From the IMG/VR virus record IMGVR_UViG_3300045994_000456: a DNA stretch of 37,045 nt, one strand, 5' to 3'. Positions 4,312-4,752 of this stretch are shown one piece after another (positions within the stretch are counted from its first letter, which is position 1; every line of letters begins with the position of its first letter). The position numbers and the translations under genes are program-made. The notes beneath the pieces were generated by a model that saw nothing but the letters and a program-made list of their open reading frames with translations, made no database searches and was not told the origin of the DNA. This stretch comes from a virus.

Positions 4312-4752
4312 ATGCTAAAAGAATTTAAAGAATTTGCTATACGCGGCAACGTTATAGACCTGGCCGTAGGCCTTATAGTAGGTATGGGATTTGGTAAAAT
4401 AGTTGCATCTCTGGTGGGCGATATTATTATGCCTCCAATAGGATTGCTTCTTGGTAAAGTTAATTTTGCAGATCTTTTCATAAATTTATCCAATAAACCT
4501 TATCTAACTTTGGCCGAGGCTAAAAAGGCCAGTGTACCAACCATTAACTATGGACTGTTCATTAGTTCAGTAGTTGATTTCACAATCGTTGCGTTTGTTG
4601 TTTTCTTATTGGTTTGGCAAGTAAATAAATTAAGGAAGCCCCCAAAGCCCCCAGAGCCCCCGCCAACCAAGGAATGCCAATTCTGTGGTTCCAAGATGCC
4701 CATTAAGGCTACACGCTGTGCTGCTTGTACATCCAACATCAATATGATATAG
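4312..4752 (+). CDS. mscL: Large-conductance mechanosensitive channel MscL with a C-terminal zinc-ribbon extension
   Basis: The N-terminus [24 protein letters not shown]...[11 protein letters not shown] is near-collinear with E. coli MscL (EFREFAMRGNVVDLAVG...IIMPP.G), and a second TM region follows. The tail CQFCGS...CAAC has four Cys in CxxC pairs. Confidence 0.85.

Follow-up and report, generated by a model that had tools for sequence, protein, structure and literature searches.

A zinc-ribbon-tailed MscL channel gene in a probable huge-phage genome

Why would a virus carry a gene for a mechanosensitive channel, and does the unusual tail of that channel owe anything to the virus? Both questions are raised by a stretch of 37,045 nucleotides from the IMG/VR virus record IMGVR_UViG_3300045994_000456 (the window, by which we mean this whole stretch), in which the open reading frame (ORF) at 4312..4752 on the plus strand, with an ATG start and 146 codons ahead of the stop, is an mscL gene of a zinc-ribbon-tailed subfamily, with matches in Pfam, NCBIfam, the Protein Data Bank (PDB) and PHROG. 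A preliminary description of the sequence had seen in it a phage-borne channel whose tail was by implication a viral adaptation, perhaps for a holin-like or superinfection-exclusion role. Our answer is a different one: the tail is an ordinary property of many cellular channels, and on balance we lean towards a working tension-gated MscL that was captured by a phage and acts as a safety valve for the infected cell.

The channel body and its gate

The product of this ORF belongs to the MscL family, with matches far above chance. The Pfam MscL model (PF01741) covers residues 1-122 with E = 4.8e-40 and 137.2 bits (cut-off 27.4), and the NCBIfam mscL equivalog TIGR00220 reaches 114.8 bits (cut-off 71); two narrower NCBIfam equivalog models fall just under their cut-offs (149.5 versus 159, and 141.5 versus 142). 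The MscL-like PHROG family phrog_25692 matches with E = 7.6e-31, and the best PDB matches by sequence are both E. coli MscL (9tiu and 28oa, E = 7e-31), with residues 2-121 of the product aligned to chain residues 4-118. Together, PF01741, TIGR00220 and the E. coli structures bear out the homology that had been proposed for this ORF.

An AlphaFold2 (AF2) model of the product, built with 120 homologs, has a mean pLDDT of 77. The parts of the channel follow one another on the plus strand in the expected order: the amphipathic N-terminal helix S1 (residues 2-11; 4315..4344), whose F5 and F8 correspond to F7 and F10 of E. coli MscL and are invariant in the 120 sequences; the pore-lining first transmembrane helix TM1 (residues 14-46; 4351..4449), placed by the model and by the E. 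coli alignment; a structured periplasmic loop (residues 47-79; 4450..4548), some 8 residues longer than that of E. coli and of a length typical for the zinc-ribbon subfamily; and a second transmembrane helix, TM2 (residues 80-107; 4549..4632). The claim that the protein is collinear with bacterial MscL therefore holds from S1 through TM1 with its constriction, the loop and TM2 as far as the Pro/Ala linker, all of which align to E. coli MscL. In a Foldseek search the channel body of the model retrieves the MscL structures 4y7k and 2oar with E-values of about 1e-4, 4y7k being the best match.

The hydrophobic constriction of E. coli MscL spans A20-G26 (PMC2233830). The corresponding segment of the window protein, A18-G24, reads AVGLIVG where that of E. 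coli reads AVGVIIG. Within the E. coli gate pair L19/V23 the first leucine is kept (L17) and V23 is replaced by Leu, while I25 is replaced by Val, both replacements being hydrophobic; L17 (L19), G20 (G22), G24 (G26), F27, G28 and K29 are unchanged with respect to E. coli. Among the 119 closest homologs 25 columns are invariant, and 24 of these, including all four cysteines of the tail, are retained. If about 32% of the positions have changed and sites are assumed to be independent, the probability of keeping 24 of 25 under random change is near 1e-3. The sole departure is A26G, at a position that is Ala in 100% of the 119 homologs and corresponds to E. coli A28. Two more residues of TM1 are out of the ordinary: M25 occurs in none of the 119, and L21, at the position of the E. 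coli gate residue V23, is rare (Ile in 82%). Of these three, L21 lies within the constriction, and M25 and G26 just past its periplasmic end; all are apolar or small, and the constriction contains no hydrophilic residue. Elsewhere in the protein W102 is unique, and Q123 and A137 are rare. The gate region had been described as intact, with a loss of gate residues named as the observation that would speak against a channel. No such loss is found: the changes in the constriction are conservative and it stays hydrophobic. Since the gate residues have not been lost, a working channel remains the expectation.

A tail shared with cellular channels

Beyond residue 107 the AF2 model contains no helix, but an extended linker followed by beta strands at residues 119-121 and 128-130. 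The linker is cytoplasmic, basic and Pro-rich (residues 108-120; 4633..4671, plus strand), and in the HMMER alignment it follows 9tiu up to '..PTKE': the two linkers (PAAAPAPTKE versus PPEPPPTKE) align and end alike. The zinc-ribbon tail itself (residues 121-142; 4672..4737, plus strand) was delimited from the AF2 model and Foldseek and contains C122, C125, C136 and C139, paired as CQFC and CAAC in a CxxC-x10-CxxC motif. All four cysteines are invariant in the 120 sequences, as are A133 and T140, and R135 is nearly so (at least 90%). With Foldseek the tail superposes on the zinc ribbons of NZF, RanBP2 and L40e with root-mean-square deviations of 0.5-1.4 Å over 22-26 residues; the E-values are weak, as expected at so small a domain size. 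Pfam DZR (PF12773) matches the tail with E = 0.06 and 14 bits, below its cut-off of 27.3. The LLxEIRDLL motif of the helical bundle is absent from the product, and no C-terminal helical bundle is present. Thus the cysteine motif, the predicted strands and the Foldseek matches agree with the preliminary description that a zinc ribbon stands in place of the bundle. That description had also counted the Pro-rich linker as part of the replacement, and in this it has to be amended, as the linker is homologous to that of E. coli and the exchange concerns only the helix beyond '..TKE'. Zinc binding by the tail, like the role of the tail, we infer.

A protein search over 5.8 billion proteins returned at least 8,000 candidates, of which the best 120 were compared. 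These are 142-156 amino acids long and 61-69% identical to the window protein at a query coverage of at least 97%, and include proteins from metagenome-assembled genomes (MAGs) of Entotheonellia, WOR-3, Anaerolineae and Bipolaricaulota, on contigs of up to 2.46 Mb. All 120 share the tail, with the consensus KECPFCxSxIPIKATRCPxCTSEL. When one genome is taken per GTDB species, the tail is present in 79 of the 80 best matches, distributed over more than 15 phyla that include Acidobacteriota, Chloroflexota, Nitrospirota, Omnitrophota, Gemmatimonadota, Desulfobacterota, Planctomycetota, Verrucomicrobiota, Armatimonadota, Bacillota and Proteobacteria. The Bacillota among them include cultured organisms (Pelosinus propionicus DSM 13327, Alkalihalobacterium chitinilyticum, Cytobacillus, Mitsuokella and Veillonella), and one of the best 80 species genomes that carry the tail is that of an archaeon (Methanotrichaceae). 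The exception among the 80 is a Thermoanaerobaculia MAG (L099 159-572), with a helical tail (LLGEIRDLL) on a channel domain 65% identical to the window protein, which suggests that tails of the two types have been swapped between channel bodies that are themselves close relatives. A profile built from the tail by itself matches at least 3,693 clusters (50% identity) at E≤1e-3 and 792 at E≤1e-10; the 150 matches listed are nearly all short proteins, for the most part no longer than MscL, in which the tail lies close to the C-terminus. With the same tail in every one of the closest proteins, in almost all of the species genomes and in thousands of clusters, the implied notion of a viral adaptation does not survive. 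To judge from this distribution, the zinc ribbon is the ordinary tail of a large, little-studied cellular MscL subfamily and is not phage-specific. A literature search found no paper treating MscL together with a zinc ribbon, and a search widened to zinc fingers led to one that apparently deals with a fungal MscS-like channel. The literature on the MscL C-terminus that we consulted is confined to the helical bundle and to the M. acetivorans channel that lacks it.

The mini zinc ribbon of the tail (TKECPFCGEEININAIKCKHCGEFL-like) is also repeated in tandem, 4 to 13 times, in otherwise unrelated proteins (P0122/P0123, of 294 and 801 amino acids); the tail of MscL is therefore part of a mobile, generic zinc-ribbon module.

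The genomic slot, the history of the gene and the nature of the genome

The mscL gene lies in a variable slot (4163..5582, plus strand) between two backbone genes, recognized by tblastn synteny with a 545,322-bp IMG/VR contig (UViG_3300037484_000435) that also carries a homolog, 61% identical, of the Ro60-like protein of the window. The two sequences share the order Ro60, tRNA-His, tRNA-Trp, upstream gene and slot, and past the slot the order TAXI-like protein (48% identity), DUF2491 protein (45%), coiled-coil protein (51%) and tRNA-Leu genes, so that the flanking genes are syntenic at 28-61% identity. The upstream backbone gene (3365..4162, plus strand) encodes a protein of 265 amino acids without family assignment, 28% identical over 163 residues to its counterpart of 262 amino acids in the 545-kb contig (L106 12214-12633); used as a query for related viral loci, it found none. 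The downstream backbone gene (5583..7322, plus strand) encodes a putatively secreted TAXI-like protein with a hydrophobic N-terminus and a Gly/Ser-rich region, matched by Pfam NMT1_3 (E = 1.1e-15) and phrog_6856 (E = 8.9e-33). In the 545-kb contig the slot is occupied by an HNH endonuclease gene, two tRNA-Thr genes and two unrelated ORFs, and contains no mscL. Because this relative lacks the gene at the syntenic slot, mscL is an accessory gene, with backbone genes and PHROG matches on both sides and a presence that varies.

Ahead of mscL, the slot of the window contains a perfect 15-bp hairpin followed by a run of U (4180..4213, plus strand), which was spotted by eye and then confirmed by RNA folding (ΔG = −18.9 kcal/mol, z = −4.98, none of 200 shuffled sequences as good) and which resembles a terminator separating the upstream backbone gene from a tRNA-Tyr/mscL unit. 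The tRNA-Tyr(GTA) gene (4221..4297, plus strand; 77 nt; ARAGORN, and Rfam tRNA with 55.3 bits) belongs to the same slot and ends 14 nt ahead of the mscL start codon, and we conjecture that the two may be transcribed as one. A scan for sigma-70 promoters and terminators around mscL gave sites no more numerous than in shuffled sequence. No Shine-Dalgarno-like motif precedes the mscL start, while 30 of the 45 ORFs of the window have one. After mscL come three small ORFs, of 96 amino acids (4765-5055, no family match), 119 amino acids (5066-5425, with a hydrophobic N-terminus and a Lys/Pro-rich C-terminal half in the translation) and 49 amino acids (5437-5586).

As for the age of the gene, the GC content of mscL is 0.40 (0.37 at third codon positions), compared with 0.39-0.42 for the phage backbone and a median of 0.56 for 80 cellular homologs, so that its composition has been ameliorated to that of its surroundings. 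The best identity found in the databases is 68-69%, and the nearest relatives, at 60-69%, span many phyla. The product is the most divergent of its set of matches, with an identity to the consensus of 0.69 (the minimum among the others being 0.697); for the tail the figure is 0.56 (median 0.73). That the ORF is intact, the GC content ameliorated and the conserved positions kept despite about 32% divergence suggests that the gene has long been resident under purifying selection: in sequence terms, one would expect this of an old acquisition held by selection, but not of a gene just captured, of an assembly chimera or of a pseudogene in decay. The same observations bear on the best surviving alternative to a safety valve, according to which mscL would be a passenger gene without selected function, picked up in a recombination-prone slot of tRNA and homing endonuclease genes and not yet lost. 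The slot is clearly variable, the 545-kb relative has no mscL in it, and the missing Shine-Dalgarno motif points the same way, but a mere passenger would hardly have kept an intact ORF, its four cysteines and its other conserved positions through such divergence and a full amelioration of GC, and we regard this explanation as unlikely.

Five other IMG/VR loci with zinc-ribbon MscL genes (L006-L010) were considered as viral copies and rejected, as in each the gene lies at a contig edge, either with host-type neighbors or where a lambda-like prophage ends. The neighbors of these genes encode a histidine kinase, NUDIX, glycosidase and DUF4127 proteins, or belong to the lambda-like prophage edge; they look like host flanks, and the mscL of the window is the more convincing viral case. 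A tblastn search of GenBank phages yielded 20 records, many of them bacterial records of several hundred kb or fragments of less than 15 kb entered as phage; these 20 were given no weight as evidence for phage MscL.

Is the genome that of a phage? The window is part of the JGI contig Ga0485839_0000034 (71,452 bp), minus one segment of 2,328 bp. The neighborhood of mscL was assembled independently in 5 samples with 100% identical DNA; since the same arrangement recurs in this way, it is neither a chimera nor a fresh contamination. For more than 45 kb every credible gene is read from the same strand. Nine tRNA genes (ARAGORN) are interspersed with HNH and PD-(D/E)XK endonuclease genes, and a LAGLIDADG-type endonuclease is encoded upstream. 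PHROG and Pfam matches include P63C (phrog_2384, E = 7e-105), Gp88, an SF2 helicase (phrog_16) and a phosphoesterase (phrog_547), among others, and downstream of the window some 30 small co-directional ORFs, almost all without Pfam match, are followed by an NAD-dependent ligase gene. The SF2 helicase shares only 25-28% identity with its counterparts in known phages, and for this reason the lineage is taken as novel. Neither a megablast search of GenBank phages with 25 kb of the window nor a search of IMG/VR for the exact mscL DNA found a match; the phage has no close sequenced relative. On this genomic context, which agrees with the description of the gene as phage-borne, we consider the fragment very probably phage.

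The converse, that the window derives from a cellular chromosome, a plasmid or another extrachromosomal element with the mscL of the cell itself, gains something from the fact that no structural or packaging gene was seen in about 52 kb, and from Ro60, the vault-like protein, the poly(ADP-ribose) polymerase (PARP), the TAXI-like binding protein and DUF2491, which also occur in cells. It is improbable in view of the strict one-strand gene order, the many small ORFs without family match, the tRNA genes among homing endonucleases and the multiple PHROG matches; moreover, neither ribosomal genes nor any other housekeeping gene turned up, and the closest relatives of the Ro60 and vault-like proteins are on IMG/VR viral contigs of 29-545 kb. 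For the vault-like protein these are full-length homologs with 37-46% identity, on 11 contigs of 29-470 kb, none of which has an mscL gene within 10 kb of the vault-like homolog.

Several features of this genome deserve mention in their own right. The extra 2,328 bp of the longer contig (Ga0485839_0000034/L001 3287-5614) insert at 816|817 of the window, the rest being 100% identical, and contain most of the P63C gene (phrog_2384) and, on the opposite strand, an IS1595-family transposase gene; the difference is an insertion/deletion polymorphism within one phage population. Three proteins are of kinds usually seen as eukaryotic ribonucleoprotein or stress machinery: a Ro60/TROVE protein with a vWA domain (phrog_850; 1213-2829), an 879-residue protein like the major vault protein (14084-16723; MVP_shoulder with E = 1e-25, and Vault_3), and a full PARP with WGR, regulatory and catalytic domains (28580-29977). 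This trio may be more interesting than MscL. Cellular Ro60 genes usually adjoin a tRNA-like Y RNA; here tRNA-His and tRNA-Trp lie directly 3' of Ro60 (2899-3334), in an order kept in the 545-kb relative, and a search for a Y RNA beside Ro60 (Rfam, E up to 1) found only tRNAs. A non-coding stretch of 617 nt lies upstream of Ro60 (596-1212). A tRNA array at 9520-12239 comprises Leu-GAG, Leu-TAG, Tyr, Leu-TAA, Leu-CAA and Ile-GAT and includes a PD-(D/E)XK (9932-10420) and an HNH (11232-12071) endonuclease; over this array the GC content drops to about 0.37-0.40. The two tRNA-Tyr(GTA) genes of the window differ in build: that of the mscL slot has 77 nt, and that of the array (10324-10409) has 86 nt with a long variable arm. 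The long-armed form is the bacterial type, and the short form is unusual for a bacterial tRNA-Tyr. Finally, the backbone block at 5583-8830 that is common to the window and the 545-kb phage encodes the TAXI/NMT1_3 protein, the DUF2491 protein and a 255-residue coiled-coil protein with only weak matches, to long coiled-coil proteins such as LmuB/JetC and TPR/MLP1. If DUF2491 is, as we take it to be, the family of E. coli YjfK, encoded beside a PspA-like gene, this block could be an envelope or membrane-stress module beside which mscL landed.

Possible roles and relation to known systems

If the channel is a safety valve, a lineage of very large phages would have captured mscL from a bacterium long ago and held it as an accessory gene in a variable slot rich in tRNA and homing endonuclease genes. 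Made during infection, the channel would insert into the host inner membrane and assemble like cellular MscL, as a pentamer. It would open only at near-lytic tension, as a non-selective valve that dumps solutes, and the infected cell would survive osmotic down-shock or surges of turgor until the long replication cycle is complete; the phage channel would supplement or replace the host channels after shut-off of host gene expression. The zinc ribbon, in turn, would take over the job of the helical bundle by holding the cytoplasmic ends together and tuning the sensitivity to tension. The C-terminal domain of characterized MscL channels is dispensable for gating and modulates the tension threshold and the oligomeric state (PMC6167328), and the ribbon plausibly tunes both as the bundle does. 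In this scheme we infer the activity of the channel, the timing of its expression and the benefit to the phage. Several points weigh against it. The related 545-kb phage does without mscL, and any benefit would hence be conditional; translation of mscL may be weak, given the missing Shine-Dalgarno motif; the changes at L21, M25 and G26 could move the gating threshold either way; and no capsid, portal or terminase gene was seen within about 52 kb, so that the designation as a phage rests on context and on the IMG/VR relatives.

The changes in TM1 can also be taken as the essence of the matter. In one version, about as improbable as a cellular origin of the window, they would shift the threshold of a retuned channel whose ribbon senses redox state or zinc, and through which a huge phage controls the turgor and permeability of its host. 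In another, the altered gate would open at low tension or spontaneously, and the protein would time lysis or host shutdown as a holin-like, depolarizing device. Opening of MscL does dissipate ion gradients, the three substitutions are unique or nearly so, one of them inside the constriction, and the product is the most divergent of its set. Yet the substituted residues put nothing hydrophilic into the constriction, and the retention of 24 of the 25 invariant positions is what normal gating would predict. The gene, moreover, lies in an early-type region with tRNA genes and enzymes of nucleic acids, and the window ORFs that were scanned yielded no endolysin, spanin or holin family, nor did the 10-kb flanks of mscL yield any lysozyme, amidase or holin family (with ORF 11232-12071 scanned against PHROGs only). 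With a protein that matches MscL and not a holin family, a hydrophobic gate and no lysis gene among the scanned ORFs, the holin-like role once suggested for this gene is slightly less probable still than retuning. Least credible of all, and close to negligible, is the suggestion that the channel manages turgor for superinfection exclusion or for the DNA traffic of the phage itself and hinders the entry of competing DNA: turgor does oppose the ejection of DNA into a cell, but opening of MscL lowers turgor and would thus ease such entry, and no match to a known exclusion or defense family emerged for mscL or its neighbors. PADLOC, applied to mscL and 9 neighbors, gave nothing for mscL and thus no support for an exclusion role; it gave weak LmuB/JetC coiled-coil matches (E = 5e-4 to 1e-2) for ORF 8063-8830 alone, which we read as non-specific.

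Returning to the safety valve, an active channel would make this gene a clean example of a bacterial virus with its own osmotic safety valve, would add turgor control to the host functions taken over by huge phages, and would fit viromic reports of viral MscL genes that rise with salinity. A test of the retuned-channel reading would, besides, be the first to describe how a zinc-ribbon MscL functions. Of more general use is the subfamily itself, large and spread over many phyla, with a zinc ribbon where textbook channels have a helical bundle; the phage gene offers a compact, diverged representative in which to probe the role of this tail.

How the window protein relates to known systems can be stated with some precision. 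Its nearest counterparts are the cellular zinc-ribbon channels, such as those of Pelosinus propionicus DSM 13327 (L060) and Veillonella sp. R32 (L090), which have the same architecture from end to end; other carriers are MAGs of Acidobacteriota, Chloroflexota, Nitrospirota and Planctomycetota and a Methanotrichaceae archaeon. Identities over residues 1-143 are 47-64% for proteins from species genomes and at most 69% for metagenome proteins, and the window copy differs in being phage-borne, AT-richer and the most divergent. E. coli MscL (9tiu, 28oa) is 44% identical, with the same gate motif and collinearity from S1 to the '..PTKE' hinge. In the characterized channels of E. coli, M. tuberculosis (2oar) and S. 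aureus (3hzq) an amphipathic helix (LLTEIRDLLKE) forms a five-helix bundle where the window protein has its zinc ribbon. A natural MscL without the C-terminal helix exists in M. acetivorans (MaMscL, 4y7k; PMC6167328), and because of this the helix is not needed for membership in the family; MaMscL, however, simply lacks a cytoplasmic domain, whereas the window protein has a different domain there.

Phage holins and pinholins are likewise small inner-membrane proteins of phages that can permeabilize the membrane. The window protein has no kinship to them in sequence or fold, an adjacent endolysin was not found, and MscL is gated by tension, whereas holins are timers triggered by concentration. 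Virus-encoded MscLs are already known: Tetraselmis virus 1 and Cafeteria roenbergensis virus encode MscL-like proteins of about 101 amino acids, 27-29% identical to cellular MscL (PMC6163359), and MscL auxiliary genes have been reported for osmotic stress on estuarine Caudoviricetes contigs (PMC13288924). Like the window gene, these and the members of phrog_25692 are mechanosensitive-channel genes on viral genomes, of putative function. Compared with the giant-virus proteins, that of the window has its full length and reaches 69% identity with cellular channels; and compared with most of the IMG/VR MscL loci inspected, which lie at contig edges beside host-type genes, its gene has phage-type genes on both sides. 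What is new here is a well-preserved and clearly embedded copy in a huge-phage lineage.

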